3,525 nt of DNA from Escherichia phage MS2: the sequence record JQ966307.1, one strand, 5' to 3'. The translations under genes and the position numbers were made by a program. Every line of letters begins with the position of its first letter. The first letter of the stretch is position 1. Below, piece after piece: positions 1 to 3,525 of this stretch. The notes below the pieces were generated by a model. That model had not been told where the DNA came from, did not search any database, and was given only the letters and a program-made list of their open reading frames with translations.

Positions 1-131
1 GGGTGGGACCCCTTTCGGGGTCCTGCTCAACTTCCTGTCGAGCTAATGCCATTTTTTTAATGTCTTTAGCGAGACGCTACCATGGCTATCGCTGTAGGTA
101 GCCGGAATTCCATTCCTAGGAGGTTTGACTC
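1..131 (+). other. 5' untranslated leader of an ssRNA phage genome, including the 5' terminal hairpin (about 5..23, GGGACCCC-UUUC-GGGGUCC) starting with GGG
   Basis: Seen in sequence: the window opens GGGTGGGACCCCTTTCGGGGTCC, an 8-bp G/C-rich stem around a UUUC loop. Established knowledge: this is the characteristic 5' end of MS2-group genomes, whose minus strand then ends in the CCCA-complement used by replicase. The leader runs up to the first gene start at 132. Confidence 0.85.
118..123 (+). promoter_or_regulatory. Shine-Dalgarno sequence (AGGAGG) of the maturation gene, 8 nt upstream of the AUG at 132
   Basis: Seen in sequence: AGGAGG at 118..123, then an 8-nt spacer and ATG at 132. Established knowledge: in MS2 this SD is sequestered by long-range pairing with an upstream complementary sequence in the leader. 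A CUUCCU stretch around 30..36 is a plausible partner, but that pairing is inference. Confidence 0.75.
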
Positions 132-1313
132 ATGCGAGCTTTTAGTGTCCTTGATCAGGAGTCCGAGACCTTCGTCCCTAGCGTCCGCGTTTATGCGGAC
201 GGGCAGGTCGAAGATAACTCGTTTTCCCTAAAATACCGCTCGAACTGGACTCCCGGTCGATTTAATTCGACCGGGTCTAGAACGGAACAGTGGCACTATC
301 CGTCCCCTTATTCTAGGGGTGCGCTCAGTGTCACATCGGTAGATCAAGGTGCCTACAAGCGCTCTGGGTCATCGTGGGGTCGCCCGTACGAGGAGAAAGC
401 CGGTTTTGGCTTCTCACTCGACGCACGTTCCTGCTATAGCCTCTTCCCTGTTAGTCAGAATCTGACTTACATCGAAGTGCCGCAGAACGTTGCGAACCGG
501 GCGTCGACCGAAGTCCTGCAGAAGGTCACTCAAGGAAATTTCAACCTTGGTGTGGCCCTAGCAGAGGCCAGGTCGACAGCCTCACAACTCGCGACGCAAA
601 CCATTGCGCTCGTGAAGGCGTACACTGCCGCTCGTCGCGGCAATTGGCGCCAGACGCTCCGCTATCTTGCCCTAAACGAAGATCGGAAGTTCCGATCGAA
701 ACACGTGGCAGGCAGGTGGTTGGAGTTGCAGTTCGGCTGGCTACCGCTCATGAGCGATATCCAGGGCGCATATGAGATGCTTACGAAGGTTCACCTTCAA
801 GAGTTTCTTCCTATGAGGGCCGTACGGCAAGTGGGCACTAACATTAAGTTAGATGGCCGTTTGTCGTATCCAGCTGCAAACTACCAGACTACGTGCAACA
901 TATCACGACGAATCGTGATATGGTTTTACATAAACGATGCACGTTTGGCCTGGTTGTCGTCTCTAGGTATCTTGAACCCACTAGGTATAGTGTGGGAAAA
1001 GGTGCCTTTCTCATTCGTTGTCGACTGGCTCCTTCCTGTTGGGAACATGCTCGAGGGCCTCACAGCCCCCGTAGGATGCTCCTACATGTCTGGAACAGTT
1101 ACTGACGTAATAACGGGTGAGTCCATCATAAGCGTCGACGCTCCCTATGGGTGGACGGTGGATAGACAGGGCACTGCTAAGGCCCAAGTCTCAGCCATGC
1201 ATCGAGGGGTGCAATCCGTATGGCCAACAACTGGCGTATACGTGAAGTCACCTTTCTCGATGGTCCATACCTTAGACGCGTTGGCATTAATCAGGCAACG
1301 GCTCTTAAGATAG
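132..1313 (+). CDS. mat: Maturation (A / assembly) protein, 393 aa; pilus-binding minor virion protein of ssRNA coliphages
   Basis: Seen in sequence: 393-codon ORF, ATG at 132, TAG at 1311..1313, preceded by a strong SD. The translation (MRAFSVLDQESETFVPSVRVYADG...HTLDALALIRQRLLR) matches the MS2 A protein as I recall it in length and along most of its length, with differences mainly near the N-terminus. First gene in the canonical levivirus order. Confidence 0.95.
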   Translation: MRAFSVLDQESETFVPSVRVYADGQVEDNSFSLKYRSNWTPGRFNSTGSRTEQWHYPSPYSRGALSVTSVDQGAYKRSGSSWGRPYEEKAGFGFSLDARSCYSLFPVSQNLTYIEVPQNVANRASTEVLQKVTQGNFNLGVALAEARSTASQLATQTIALVKAYTAARRGNWRQTLRYLALNEDRKFRSKHVAGRWLELQFGWLPLMSDIQGAYEMLTKVHLQEFLPMRAVRQVGTNIKLDGRLSYPAANYQTTCNISRRIVIWFYINDARLAWLSSLGILNPLGIVWEKVPFSFVVDWLLPVGNMLEGLTAPVGCSYMSGTVTDVITGESIISVDAPYGWTVDRQGTAKAQVSAMHRGVQSVWPTTGVYVKSPFSMVHTLDALALIRQRLLR

Positions 1314-1324
1314 AGCCCTCAACC

Positions 1325-1328
1325 GGAG
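1325..1328 (+). promoter_or_regulatory. Coat gene ribosome-binding site (GGAG) 8 nt upstream of the coat AUG
   Basis: Seen in sequence: GGAG at 1325..1328 and ATG at 1337 within AACCGGAGTTCGAAGCATGGCTTCT. Established knowledge: in MS2 the coat initiation region forms a hairpin that sets coat translation efficiency. Confidence 0.7.
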
Positions 1329-1336
1329 TTCGAAGC

Positions 1337-1729
1337 ATGGCTTCTAACTTTACTCAGTTCGTTCTCGTCGACAATGGCGGAACTGGCGACGTGACTGTCG
1401 CTCCAAGCAACTTCGCTAACGGGGTCGCTGAATGGATTAGCTCTAACTCACGTTCTCAGGCTTACAAAGTAACCTGTAGCGTTCGTCAGAGCTCTGCGCA
1501 GAACCGCAAGTACACCATTAAGGTTGAGGTACCAAAAGTGGCTACCCAAACCGTCGGTGGTGTACAGCTTCCTGTAGCCGCATGGCGTTCGTACTTGAAT
1601 ATGGAATTAACTATTCCTATTTTCGCAACGAACGACGATTGCGCGCTTATTGTTAAGGCGATGCAAGGTCTCCTAAAAGATGGAAACCCGATCCCCTCAG
1701 CAATCGCAGCAAACTCCGGAATCTACTAA
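1337..1729 (+). CDS. cp: Major coat (capsid) protein, 130 codons (129-aa mature protein after Met removal); also the translational repressor of the replicase gene
   Basis: Seen in sequence: ATG at 1337, TAA at 1727..1729 immediately followed by an in-frame TAG at 1730..1732 (tandem stops). The translation MASNFTQFVLVDNGGTGDVTVAPSNFANGVAEWISSNSRSQAYKVTCSVRQSSAQNRKYTIKV... matches MS2 coat as I recall it at all but about 3 positions. The supplied ORF (1220..1729) begins at an upstream in-frame ATG, but the genuine start is the internal ATG at 1337 with its own RBS. Confidence 0.97.
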   Translation: MASNFTQFVLVDNGGTGDVTVAPSNFANGVAEWISSNSRSQAYKVTCSVRQSSAQNRKYTIKVEVPKVATQTVGGVQLPVAAWRSYLNMELTIPIFATNDDCALIVKAMQGLLKDGNPIPSAIAANSGIY

Positions 1730-1907
1730 TAGATTCCGTCCATTCCAACATGAGGATTACCCATGTCGAAGACAACAAAGAAGTTCAACTCTTTATGTAT
1801 TGATCTTCCTCGCGATCTTTCTCTCGAAATTTACCAATCAATTGCTTCTGTCGCTACTGGAAGCGGTGATCCGCACAGTAGAGACTTTACAGCAATTGCT
1901 TACCTAA
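1680..1907 (+). CDS. L: Lysis protein L, 75 aa, single-gene lysis protein with a C-terminal transmembrane domain; +1 frame, overlapping the coat 3' end and the replicase 5' end
   Basis: Seen in sequence: ATG at 1680, TAA at 1905..1907, 75 codons, in a different frame from both coat and replicase. The translation METRSPQQSQQTPESTNRFRPFQHEDYPCRRQQRSSTLYVLIFLAIFLSKFTNQLLLSLLEAVIRTVETLQQLLT has a hydrophobic C-terminal half and an LS dipeptide in a Leu-rich stretch. Established knowledge: this matches the position, size and sequence of MS2 L, whose translation is coupled to coat termination. Confidence 0.9.
   Translation: METRSPQQSQQTPESTNRFRPFQHEDYPCRRQQRSSTLYVLIFLAIFLSKFTNQLLLSLLEAVIRTVETLQQLLT
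1748..1766 (+). promoter_or_regulatory. Coat-protein translational operator hairpin (TR) enclosing the replicase start codon; also the capsid packaging signal
   Basis: Seen in sequence: ACATGAGGATTACCCATGT at 1748..1766. It folds as a 5-bp lower stem (ACAUG/CAUGU), a bulged A at 1753, a 2-bp upper stem (GG/CC) and an AUUA loop at 1756..1759, with the replicase AUG at 1763..1765 in the 3' arm. Established knowledge: this is identical to the wild-type MS2 operator as I recall it. Confidence 0.93.
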
Positions 1908-3400
1908 GAGACGAATTGCTAACTAAGCATCCGTCCTTAGGAAATGGTAATGACGAGGCGACCCGCCGGGCTCTAGCTATCGCTAAGCTCCGGGAGGCGA
2001 ATGAGCGGTGCGGCCAGATTAATAGGGAAGGTTTCTTACACGATAAATCCTTATCGTGGGATCCGGATGTTTTACAAACCAGCATCCGTAGCCTTATTGG
2101 CAACCTTCTCTCTGGCTACCGCTCGTCGTTGTTTGGGCAATGCACGTTCTCCAACGGTGCCTCAATGGGGCACAAGTTGCAGGATGCAGCGCCTTACAAG
2201 AAGTTCGCTGAACAAGCAACCGTTACCCCCCGCGCTCTGAGAGCGGCACTACTGGTCCGAGACCAGTGTGTGCCGTGGATCAGACACGCGGTCCGCTACA
2301 ACGAGTCATATGAATTTAGGCTCGTCGTAGGGAACGGAGTGTTTACAGTTCCGAAGAATAATAAAATAGATCGGGCTGCCTGCAAGGAGCCTGATGCGAA
2401 CATGTACCTTCAGAAAGGAGTTGGCGATTTTATACGCCGTCGTCTCCGCTCTATCGGTATCGACCTGAATGATCAAACGATCAATCAGCGTCTTGCAAAA
2501 CTTGGCAGCATCGATGGTTCTTTAGCGACGATTGATTTATCGTCTGCTTCTGATTCCATATCGGACCGCCTCGTTTGGGAATTCCTCCCATCGCAAATGT
2601 ACGCGTACCTGTCGAAAATTCGTTCGTCACGAGGAATCGTTGACGGACGTGTAGTCGACTGGCACCTATTTTCCACAATGGGTAATGGTTTTACCTTTGA
2701 GCTAGAGTCCATGATATTTTGGGCAATAGTCAAGGCAACTATGATCCATTTTGGTAACCTTGGAACAATTGGCATCTATGGGGACGATATCATATGTCCC
2801 ACAGAGATTGCACCTCGTGTGCTAGAGGCTCTCAGCTTCTACGGTTTTAAACCGAATCAGTCGAAGACGTTCATCACGGGTCGCTTTCGCGAGTCCTGTG
2901 GTGCACATTACTTCGGCGGTGCTGATTGCAAACCGATTTATATCAAGAAACCCGTTAACAACCTCTTCGCCGTCTGTCTGTTACTCAACAGGCTACGCGG
3001 GTGGGGTGTTGTGAACGGAGTGTCAGATCCTCGCCTCTTCGAGACTTGGAAATGGCTATCCGAACGTGTTCCTTCGATACTTTTCGGTGGGTCTAACCTT
3101 GATGCAGACTACTACGTGGTTAGTCGTCAGGAAGCTAAAAAGCGTTACGAGAGTCACCCATCTTATGGGCGCACCCTCTCTCACTTTCATAGCACTCCTC
3201 ATCGGCTTTACCGCGTGCCCGTATCTAAACGTGAATTTTCTCCACGTGAAGAATCCGGTCGCCTCATCACTTGGTACCATAATGGTGGTCAAGTTATTGA
3301 CACCACTACGACCCCAAGGGTTCGCCTTGTGCGAACGTCGGAATGGCTAACAGTGGTGCCACTCTTCCCTCAGGAAGATGGCAACTGCGAGCTCTCCTAG
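1763..3400 (+). CDS. rep: RNA-dependent RNA polymerase (replicase beta subunit), 545 aa
   Basis: Seen in sequence: 545-codon ORF, ATG at 1763 inside the operator hairpin, TAG at 3398..3400. RdRp motif A (IDLSSASDSISD, about 2531..2566) and the catalytic motif C YGDD (2777..2788) are present, with STMGNGFTFELES between them (motif B-like). The N-terminus MSKTTKKFNSLCIDLPRDLSLEIYQSIASVATGSGDPHS matches the MS2 replicase as I recall it. The C-terminal roughly 100 aa look more diverged. Confidence 0.97.
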   Translation: MSKTTKKFNSLCIDLPRDLSLEIYQSIASVATGSGDPHSRDFTAIAYLRDELLTKHPSLGNGNDEATRRALAIAKLREANERCGQINREGFLHDKSLSWDPDVLQTSIRSLIGNLLSGYRSSLFGQCTFSNGASMGHKLQDAAPYKKFAEQATVTPRALRAALLVRDQCVPWIRHAVRYNESYEFRLVVGNGVFTVPKNNKIDRAACKEPDANMYLQKGVGDFIRRRLRSIGIDLNDQTINQRLAKLGSIDGSLATIDLSSASDSISDRLVWEFLPSQMYAYLSKIRSSRGIVDGRVVDWHLFSTMGNGFTFELESMIFWAIVKATMIHFGNLGTIGIYGDDIICPTEIAPRVLEALSFYGFKPNQSKTFITGRFRESCGAHYFGGADCKPIYIKKPVNNLFAVCLLLNRLRGWGVVNGVSDPRLFETWKWLSERVPSILFGGSNLDADYYVVSRQEAKKRYESHPSYGRTLSHFHSTPHRLYRVPVSKREFSPREESGRLITWYHNGGQVIDTTTTPRVRLVRTSEWLTVVPLFPQEDGNCELS

Positions 3401-3525
3401 TCAGCACGGCTAGGGACCCCCGTAATCGGGGTGGGTGCCGCGAAAGCGGCTATTCATCGTAACAACGATGGATAGGAGTAATCTCCTAATTTGGTGACTA
3501 ACTTTGCTTGGCTAGTCACCACCCA
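3401..3525 (+). other. 3' untranslated region (125 nt) with a series of stem-loops, ending in a 3' terminal hairpin and single-stranded CCCA
   Basis: Seen in sequence, successive hairpins: about 3417..3433 (CCCCG-UAAU-CGGGG core); 3437..3450 (GCCGC-GAAA-GCGGC, a GNRA tetraloop); 3455..3470 (CAUCGU-AACA-ACGAUG); 3473..3488 (UAGGAG-UAAU-CUCCUA); and the terminal hairpin 3493..3520 (GGUGACUA ... UAGUCACC, 8 bp) with a UGCUU-containing loop, followed by ACCCA. Established knowledge: MS2-group genomes end ...CACCACCCA with a terminal hairpin whose UGCUU loop forms a long-distance pseudoknot with the replicase coding region. Confidence 0.8.

Follow-up and report, generated by a model that had tools for sequence, protein, structure and literature searches.

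The stretch analysed here, hereafter the window, is the 3525-nucleotide (nt) genome record of levivirus strain DL52 (JQ966307; genus Emesvirus), and window positions are those of the JQ966307 numbering. We focused on its 3' untranslated region (UTR), which spans positions 3401-3525 and is 125 nt long, and on the question of where this unusually short element comes from. The list of open reading frames (ORFs) gives four genes ahead of it:

132-1313, plus strand, maturation protein gene
end at 1729, plus strand, coat gene
1680-1907, plus strand, lysis gene
1763-3400, plus strand, replicase gene

In MS2 (NC_001417.2) the genome is 3569 nt long and the replicase gene spans 1761-3398, which gives a 3' UTR of 171 nt, 46 nt longer than in the window. 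All four window ORFs sit at +2 relative to the MS2 coordinates, and the sole source of this offset is a run of U in the 5' UTR, at window 52-58, that has seven residues versus five in MS2 and in isolate DL16. The two genome lengths thus balance exactly (3525 - 3569 = -44 = +2 - 46), and the preliminary description of this DNA, which had put the UTR at 125 versus 171 nt and had deduced from the uniform offset that the length gap is confined to it, was correct on both points. As for the two extra U, they could stem from slippage during reverse transcription (RT) or PCR. The window terminates with ...GGUGACUAACUUUGCUUGGCUAGUCACCACCCA, and its positions 3518-3525, ACCACCCA, are the emesvirus end signature, which is invariant across all complete emesvirus genomes compared.

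The short UTR, its deletions and the retained ACCACCCA have already been published for DL52. Friedman, Snellgrove and Genthner (2012, Viruses 4:1548; PMC3499819) described the "JS" strains DL52 (JQ966307, 3525 nt) and DL54 (JQ966308, 3398 nt, partial), reported a JS genome of 3525 nt versus 3569-3575 nt in genogroup I owing to deletions in the 3' UTR ("53 nt deletions" from ~40 nt past the stop codon), noted the shared terminal motif, and proposed that DL16 was one parent in a recombination inside the replicase gene, the predicted breakpoints being scattered over amino acids (aa) 133-460. That report contains no interpretation of secondary structure ("data not shown") and does not identify the 3' donor. 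What is added here is a dissection at the level of individual hairpins, three of which are absent including the literature's hairpin V, a sharp crossover interval, and the donor lineage in public metagenomes; we also raise, tentatively and as the lesser of our expectations, a doubt as to whether the "first natural levivirus recombinants" are natural. Our principal conclusion is that window 3401-3525 is very probably the complete native 3' domain of a separate lineage, which we call lineage X, joined by a single crossover at 2348-2395 to a DL16-like MS2.

The first result that leads to this conclusion is that the UTR in the window is a third emesvirus layout. Each UTR was folded with 25 nt of upstream context, and the helices described below are predictions. 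In every emesvirus folded there is a common frame, consisting of R1 with the stop codon, H1 (CCCCG-UAAN-CGGGG), and then UGGGU pairing with the terminal ACCCA to form helix ld IX. Seven hairpins lie between the ld IX strands in MS2, DL16 and fr, four in the window and four in GA; the seven-hairpin fold agrees with the "seven hairpins in phage MS2" described previously (PMC3561173). In genogroup I, we label these hairpins H2 (GUGCUC-GAAA-GAGCAC), H3 (CCGC-GAAA-GCGG), H4, H5 (UUCG-type tetraloop), H6 (large A-rich loop, the "hairpin V" of the literature), H7 (CGGGA-UUC-UCCCG) and U1. The elements of the window, with their pair probabilities (P), are as follows.

3395-3415, plus strand, R1: 8 base pairs (bp), loop AGCAC, stop codon UAG (3398-3400) in the 5' arm; mean P 0.91
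3418-3431, plus strand, H1: CCCCG-UAAU-CGGGG, between R1 and ld IX; P 0.95
3432-3436, plus strand, ld IX 5' strand: UGGGU, pairs with ACCCA, invariant in 7/7 genomes compared; mean P 0.85
3436/3437, plus strand, junction where H2 is absent: clean gap where group I has GUGCUC GAAA GAGCAC plus GGGU, 19 nt
3437-3450, plus strand, H3: GCCGC-GAAA-GCGGC, core CCGCGAAAGCGG the same as in DL16 and fr; P 1.00
3451-3474, plus strand, H4': 10 bp, loop AACA; mean P 0.87, -9.8 kcal/mol alone
3475-3486, plus strand, H7': GGAG-UAAU-CUCC, at the position of group I H7; P 1.00
3487-3492, plus strand, linker: unpaired UAAUUU ahead of U1 (AUUU in MS2)
3493-3520, plus strand, U1: 8-bp lower stem, A.C mismatch 3501/3512, two apical pairs, loop UUGCUU 3504-3509; P 0.99
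3521-3525, plus strand, ACCCA: ld IX 3' strand and replicase initiation site (CCA end), invariant in all complete genomes compared

When the UTR was folded alone, GGG 3413-3415 and CCC 3522-3524 appeared as a closing helix. We rejected this candidate because, once upstream context is included, these G are part of R1 and the domain is closed by UGGGU/ACCCA, in agreement with the literature, which has ld IX closing the 3' domain in all Leviviridae and places the hairpins between R1 and ld IX (Rumnieks & Tars 2012, PMC3561173). The intact complementarity of ld IX, together with the ACCACCCA end, upholds the earlier view that the 3' end is not truncated.

The window thus has the features of a levivirus 3' domain, namely the CCA end, ld IX, U1 with a UGCUU-type loop, and R1 with the stop codon; what it lacks is the MS2-type UTR of 171-176 nt with seven hairpins, hairpin V among them. 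Its similarities to genogroup I (MS2, DL16, fr; Emesvirus zinderi) are nevertheless extensive: R1 has the same 8-bp stem and 5-nt loop with the stop codon, H1 and both ld IX strands have the same sequence (with no variation in the H1 stem among group I or X-type sequences), the CCGCGAAAGCGG core of H3 is shared with DL16 and fr, and an H7-like hairpin, a U-rich linker, U1 with UGCUU and the ACCACCCA end all follow. The differences, apart from length and hairpin number, are that the window has no H2, that H4, H5 and the A-rich H6/V are replaced by H4', and that R1 in the window has its stop codon placed 4 nt further 5'. U1 also differs. Where MS2 and fr have A-U, the window, like GA, has G-C at pair 3496-3517; position 3501 is A versus G in MS2, which creates the A.C mismatch; and the loop is 2 nt longer than in MS2. 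The preliminary description had stated that the terminal UGCUU hairpin and CCCA are kept, which stands as far as their presence goes, although the hairpin is not identical to that of MS2.

Aligning and folding the UTRs (MS2, DL16, fr and GA compared) confirmed the length gap and allowed us to locate it hairpin by hairpin. Measured between conserved anchors with DL16 as the reference, the window gains 4 nt from the earlier stop codon inside R1, is unchanged over the spacer, H1 and the ld IX 5' strand, loses 19 nt where UGCUCGAAAGAGCACGGGU (H2 plus linker) is gone as a clean gap with identical flanks, is unchanged over the H3 core, loses 34 nt in the H3-to-H7 stretch, loses 1 nt in H7, gains 2 nt each in the linker and the U1 loop, and is unchanged over ACCCA, which sums to -46 nt. 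The 34 nt arise where H4, H5 and H6 occupy 59 nt in DL16 and a single hairpin 25 nt in the window: the 24-nt H4' is the sole hairpin at the position of group I H4/H5/H6(V). We treat it as a probable homologue of group I H4 because its stem core, UCAUC/GAUGG, resembles that of fr H4, UCAUC/GGUGG. In the folded window UTR there is no counterpart of hairpin V (in MS2, GGGACCUCC, loop CCUAAAG, then GGACCC), and A-containing single strands are limited to the H4' loop (AACA), the H7' loop (UAAU) and the linker (UAAUUU). Three hairpins are therefore missing (H2, H5 and H6/V) and two are remodelled (H4 and H7), and the expectation that one internal hairpin had been deleted or remodelled has to be given up.

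The short UTR also invites comparison with genogroup II (GA, BZ13/DL10; Emesvirus japonicum), whose UTRs are 118-119 nt long and likewise have four hairpins inside ld IX. The U1 stem, GGUGACUA/UAGUCACC, and the loop context UUUGCUUGG are identical. In contrast, GA has an H2-like hairpin (GUGACC GAAA GGCCAC) right after ld IX, which is absent from the window, and is without the H3 that the window has; its two middle hairpins have sequences of their own, unrelated to those of the window, and its R1 and H1 are in another register. Because the hairpin sets differ and the GA replicase is only 53% identical to that of lineage X, the two short UTRs are different reductions or elaborations rather than the same element. 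Elsewhere among ssRNA phages, hairpin number is labile while U1, ld IX and a UGCUU-like loop form a conserved core (PMC3561173; PMC13483237): PP7, AP205, phiCb5 and SP have three-hairpin 3' domains, and PRR1, C-1, Hgal1 and M have no hairpin V (PMC3561173). Those are distant genera with unrelated UTRs, whereas the reduced domain of the window belongs to Emesvirus and is attached to structural genes of MS2 type.

Several lines of evidence support the fold. The folding energy of the UTR alone is -55.4 kcal/mol, versus -36.1 +/- 3.8 kcal/mol in 200 shuffles (z = -5.1), and pair probabilities per helix range from 0.85 to 1.00 in the window. We also built a covariation alignment of seven sequences (four X-type, three genogroup I), in which R1, H1, ld IX, H3 and U1 could be aligned. 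Standard pairs occupy 98.4% of its cells, versus 25-49% when the 3' partners are slid by one to three columns, and neither the paired fraction nor the covariation score of the real alignment is reached in any of 500 shuffles. Seven pairs differ at both positions, of which R1 holds four and U1 two; the seventh, in H3, reflects a local misalignment of MS2. R1 is paired in 100% of cells across the seven sequences and its four double changes separate X-type from group I, while U1 has two stem pairs that covary in comparison with MS2, fr and GA. Among X-type UTRs there are four variable sites, 3426 (U>C in the H1 loop, L011), 3482 (H7' loop, DL54), 3492 (linker, DL54) and the length of the U-run 3503-3505 in the U1 loop (L010; these assemblies are introduced below), all at unpaired or marginally paired positions; with 37 of the 125 UTR nt unpaired, simple arithmetic puts the chance of this at ~0.008.

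The second important result concerns the origin of this domain. By megablast against 50,697 phage records, only JQ966308.1 (MS2 isolate DL54) aligns with the window through the 3' end, at 96.8% over 128-3525, and it is the sole record that matches the full UTR; MS2-group genomes align only up to ~3117-3123. Metagenomes were more informative. With replicase residues 200-545 as a protein query, we retrieved a 544-residue Logan protein (P0003) with 97% identity, whose 90% cluster comprises four members from different assemblies:

L008, Logan SRR7550489, 3295 nt
L010, ENA ERZ781410, 3548 nt, near-complete
L011, Logan ERR3201760, 3462 nt
L007, OGVH01004572, 1325 nt

Other searches did not yield the donor: IMG/VR viral contigs searched with the replicase C-terminus and with the H1-H3 junction motif CGGGGTGGGTGCCGCGAAAGCGG contained none, 190 C-terminal replicase residues used as a protein query gave one irrelevant partial hit, and an exact look-up of the window replicase protein gave no match.

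These four contigs define lineage X. Their mutual identity is 88-99% genome-wide, whereas in the 5' 2.4 kilobases (kb) identity to MS2, DL16 and fr falls to 44-83%; among deposited phage genomes, their 5' 2.2 kb has no match above 67%. The maturation protein is 56% identical to that of MS2, 57% to fr and 42% to GA, with corresponding values of 74%, 81% and 60% for the coat protein and 65%, 66% and 53% for the replicase. Since protein divergence from MS2 is consistent and the N- and C-terminal parts of the replicase have diverged alike (61% and 68% identity to MS2, respectively), we regard lineage X, on sequence grounds, as a coherent sister lineage of genogroup I and an undescribed emesvirus. 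It is the source of the "JS" replicase type. That L008 might be a chimeric assembly was considered and rejected, as two separate assemblies, L010 and L011, combine the same 5' and 3' parts across the genome.

From ~2365 to its end the window is 95-100% identical to the lineage-X contigs, lineage X being the donor of its last 1.15 kb, and three of the four assemblies (L008, L010 and L011) reproduce its UTR. L008 shows 0 mismatches over the 93 nt of window 3401-3493, up to the end of the contig; L010 shows 0 mismatches over 112 nt, up to GGCU of the U1 3' arm, the sole difference being one U fewer in the loop; and L011 covers 35 nt of the UTR with one loop difference. The 3436/3437 junction is present in the independent assemblies L008 and L010. 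Because lineage-X genomes carry the same UTR, the shortness of the element is not a truncation, an RT-skipping or cloning artefact of one laboratory, or a deletion in MS2. A sequencing artefact, in which the UTR was truncated or misassembled or its stable GC-rich hairpins were skipped during RT or cloning, might have been suspected, since the missing GAAA and UUCG tetraloop hairpins are of the kind that RT can skip and one laboratory produced both the DL52 and the DL54 sequence, working from cloned RT-PCR products. However, the family signature stands at the end, ld IX complementarity is intact, the short-read assemblies SRR7550489, ERZ781410 and ERR3201760 reproduce both junctions with the 0 mismatches over 93 and 112 nt given above, and the remaining hairpins are remodelled with their pairing intact, which is not an outcome of skipping. 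We therefore consider such an artefact highly improbable.

Hardly more credible is a deletion in situ, by which an MS2-type UTR of 171 nt would have lost or remodelled one internal hairpin within the MS2 lineage, as the preliminary description had implied. The 5' two-thirds of the genome are indeed of the MS2 group, and where H2 is absent there is a clean 19-nt gap whose flanks match DL16 and fr exactly, the picture that a simple deletion would leave. Nevertheless, divergence from every MS2-group genome begins at ~2396, ~1 kb ahead of the UTR, the same UTR is found on lineage-X genomes that are elsewhere just 45-83% identical to MS2, the missing hairpins are three rather than one, the flanks of the second gap have diverged, and a recent deletion leaves the compensatory substitutions in R1 and U1 unexplained.

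Comparing the window with DL16 and lineage X along its whole length reveals a mosaic. It is ~100% identical to isolate DL16 (EF108464) up to ~2350 and then only 44-87% identical to every genogroup I genome. At sites that distinguish DL16 from lineage X, the window is DL16-type at 837/837 in 12-2347 and X-type at nearly all in 2396-3501, which delimits two further features.

2348-2395, plus strand, crossover interval: a stretch almost invariant in all emesviruses (GTTCCGAAGAATAATAAAATAGATCGGGCTGCCTG), replicase aa ~196-211
2396-3400, plus strand, replicase part derived from lineage X: residues ~212-545, 95-99% nt identity to L010 versus 44-87% to DL16

Residues 206-545 of the window replicase are 97.6% identical to lineage X and 67.8% to MS2. 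A "2-nt insertion" mentioned in the 2012 paper led us to consider whether the diverged C-terminus could be a frameshift artefact, which we rejected because the protein is in frame with MS2 over 540 residues (79%) and has the above identity to lineage X. A single crossover, at ~2370, suffices to bring in the C-terminal two-thirds of the replicase together with the UTR, and co-adaptation of the two need not be invoked.

A native lineage-X domain as the origin of the UTR has several points against it. First, ERZ781410 and ERR3201760 may share one study, in which case there are fewer than four independent sources. Second, all helices are predicted, and covariation lends no support to ld IX and H1, which never vary. 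Third, DL52 and DL54, sequenced by primer walking in one laboratory, are the only source of the last 12 nt (AGTCACCACCCA), which could be partly primer-derived; the U1 5' arm, loop and GGCU are confirmed by L010, with its one U fewer, while the last 8 nt of the U1 3' arm are seen only in DL52 and DL54. The model predicts a 3' end of ...GGCUAGUCACCACCCA-3', with nothing beyond it. Fourth, naming H5 and H6 as lost and H4 as kept is an interpretation, the suggested homologies (H4' with H4, H7' with H7) coming from position and short sequence similarity. Finally, the functional roles discussed below would be carried over from MS2, Qbeta and PRR1.

DL52 and DL54 are the only reported natural levivirus recombinants, which makes it important to ask how the mosaic arose. 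The two genomes differ at 0/1773 positions in 128-1900, 24/482 in 1901-2382 and 84/1018 (8.3%) in 2383-3400, while their 5' part is 99.8-99.9% identical to DL16, the next deposited strain being at 94.7%. This pattern does not appear to fit one ancestral recombinant followed by ordinary divergence; repeated recombination or a chimera would fit it better. In the natural alternative, which is possible, a single DL16-like 5' parent would have recombined more than once, each time with a different X strain and always at this one conserved site. The other explanation, to which we give a real but smaller share of belief, is a laboratory chimera, in which the 5' part of DL52 and DL54 is a DL16-like contaminant amplified by MS2-based primers and the 3' part comes from true lineage-X isolates, the joint in the conserved 2348-2395 having formed when amplicons were assembled or by template switching during PCR; either way, the UTR has the same origin.

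The distribution of differences between DL52 and DL54, which is not clock-like for the descendants of one recombinant, speaks for a chimera, as do the near-identity of both 5' parts to DL16, a strain sequenced by the same group, and the poor fit that MS2-derived walking primers would have to the diverged 5' 2.4 kb of lineage X. Furthermore, the recombinant replicase clusters P0002 and P0004 hold only the two GenBank records and no metagenome members, while the non-recombinant X cluster has its four. On the other side, the authors report that different investigators isolated the strains, with plaque purification and three clones of each, and argue against contamination (PMC3499819). At 1621 and 1811, DL52 and DL54 carry the MS2-consensus base and the DL16 record is the outlier, so that the 5' part is not literally the DL16 record; as direct evidence of chimerism, these two single-nucleotide differences common to DL52 and DL54 against DL16 are uninformative. 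A more direct sign would have been a middle segment of DL54 identical to another strain of the same laboratory; among deposited strains none was found, segment 1901-2382 matching no strain above 96.1%. Repeated natural recombination at a conserved hotspot may also have produced the pattern, and DL52-like reads are abundant in infectious wastewater fractions (PMC6963950), although pure lineage-X reads would also classify as DL52. We therefore advance only as a minority hypothesis that the "JS" phages are an undescribed third emesvirus species with a four-hairpin 3' domain (maturation protein ~56%, coat ~75-81% and replicase ~65% identical to MS2/fr) and that the published DL52 and DL54 genomes are laboratory chimeras. 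The answer decides whether the window shows an MS2-type maturation protein and coat working with a lineage-X 3' domain.

How might this domain work? The replicase begins copying the plus strand from its 3' UTR; the CCA end sits in the active site, and synthesis is initiated at the penultimate C (review, PMC10610835). By analogy, ld IX in the window would sequester the CCA end where the replicase begins minus-strand synthesis, and U1 would be the element held by the maturation protein in virions, a contact that is conserved across ssRNA phages (PMC13483237; PMC10610835). An essential pseudoknot in Qbeta joins the U1 loop to a site ~1200 nt upstream (PMC3561173), and the U1 loop of the window may likewise pair with a conserved CAAGCAA at 2213-2219, a sequence 1292 nt upstream of UUGCUUG 3504-3510 and complementary to it.

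2213-2221, plus strand, candidate pseudoknot partner of the U1 loop: CAAGCAACC, in the DL16-derived part

This motif is kept in 9/9 emesvirus sequences, representing ~4 independent lineages, including synonymous third positions (Gln and Ala codons), and lineage X has kept it yet is only ~56% identical to the window around it. The conservation is suggestive of an emesvirus Qbeta-like long-range pseudoknot, for now a candidate, that would span the recombination breakpoint. The missing hairpins, for their part, are plausibly accessory elaborations of genogroup I, because hairpin V is present in MS2, Qbeta, SP and AP205 and absent in PRR1, C-1, Hgal1 and M (PMC3561173), and because MSRP-22, a spontaneously evolved template of the MS2 replicase, keeps only nt 3464-3568 of the MS2 UTR and is thus without H1-H3 (PMC8956599). 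Recognition of the plus strand by the MS2 replicase seems, in addition, to require internal sites beyond the UTRs (PMC6847885).

These findings have several implications. Lineage X indicates that a four- or a seven-hairpin 3' replication/packaging domain is possible within one genus. Together with GA, it separates a core (R1, H1, ld IX, U1 with UGCUU, and the CCA end) from the presumably dispensable H2, H5 and hairpin V, which is useful for the design of minimal MS2-replicase templates and packaging signals. Hairpin V is an old candidate for the site bound by the maturation protein. If DL52 is genuine, it is a natural domain swap in which an MS2-type maturation protein and coat package and deliver RNA with no hairpin V in its 3' domain, which would argue that U1, not V, is the determinant, consistent with cryo-electron microscopy. 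If DL52 is a chimera, the main cited case of natural levivirus recombination falls, and studies that classified reads with DL52 as a reference counted a different, undescribed phage.

Some further observations concern lineage X and its relatives. L007, the single match of a metagenome scan, agrees with the window over 12 nt past the stop codon and then diverges (TCGTGACTGGGAAAC); as it ends ~27 nt past that codon, it is uninformative on the UTR. Its replicase C-terminus is 81% identical in aa to that of the window, and it could be a more divergent X strain or show a contig-end artefact. In L010, the spacer between the coat and replicase genes (1729-1801) is 73 nt long versus 33 nt in MS2, and a 72-codon ORF at 1728-1946 runs from the coat stop codon into the replicase gene, a position like that of the GA lysis gene. 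L009 (JGI 3300066765, 3505 nt) is an emesvirus-like genome whose replicase (P0007) is 57% identical to the C-terminal part of that of the window; it has at least 141 nt past the stop codon, with GGUGGGUGG and a CGCGAAAGCG hairpin, in a contig without the CCCA end.

Finally, a few features lie elsewhere in the window. In an Rfam scan, the single match was the MS2 translational operator hairpin (RF02359) at 1731-1766, with 59.6 bits, where the replicase start would lead one to expect it; the levivirus 3' domain is not represented by an Rfam family, and no tRNA-like element was found in the window. The maturation gene start (132-134) is AUG in the window and DL16, and GUG in MS2. Just ahead of the replicase stop codon, GCGAGCUCUCCU (window 3380-3400, MS2 3378-3398) is kept in the window, MS2 and fr but in different frames (...C-E-L-S-stop in the window, ...A-S-S-P-R-stop in MS2), which suggests that this sequence, the 5' flank of R1, is under constraint at the level of RNA and not of protein.

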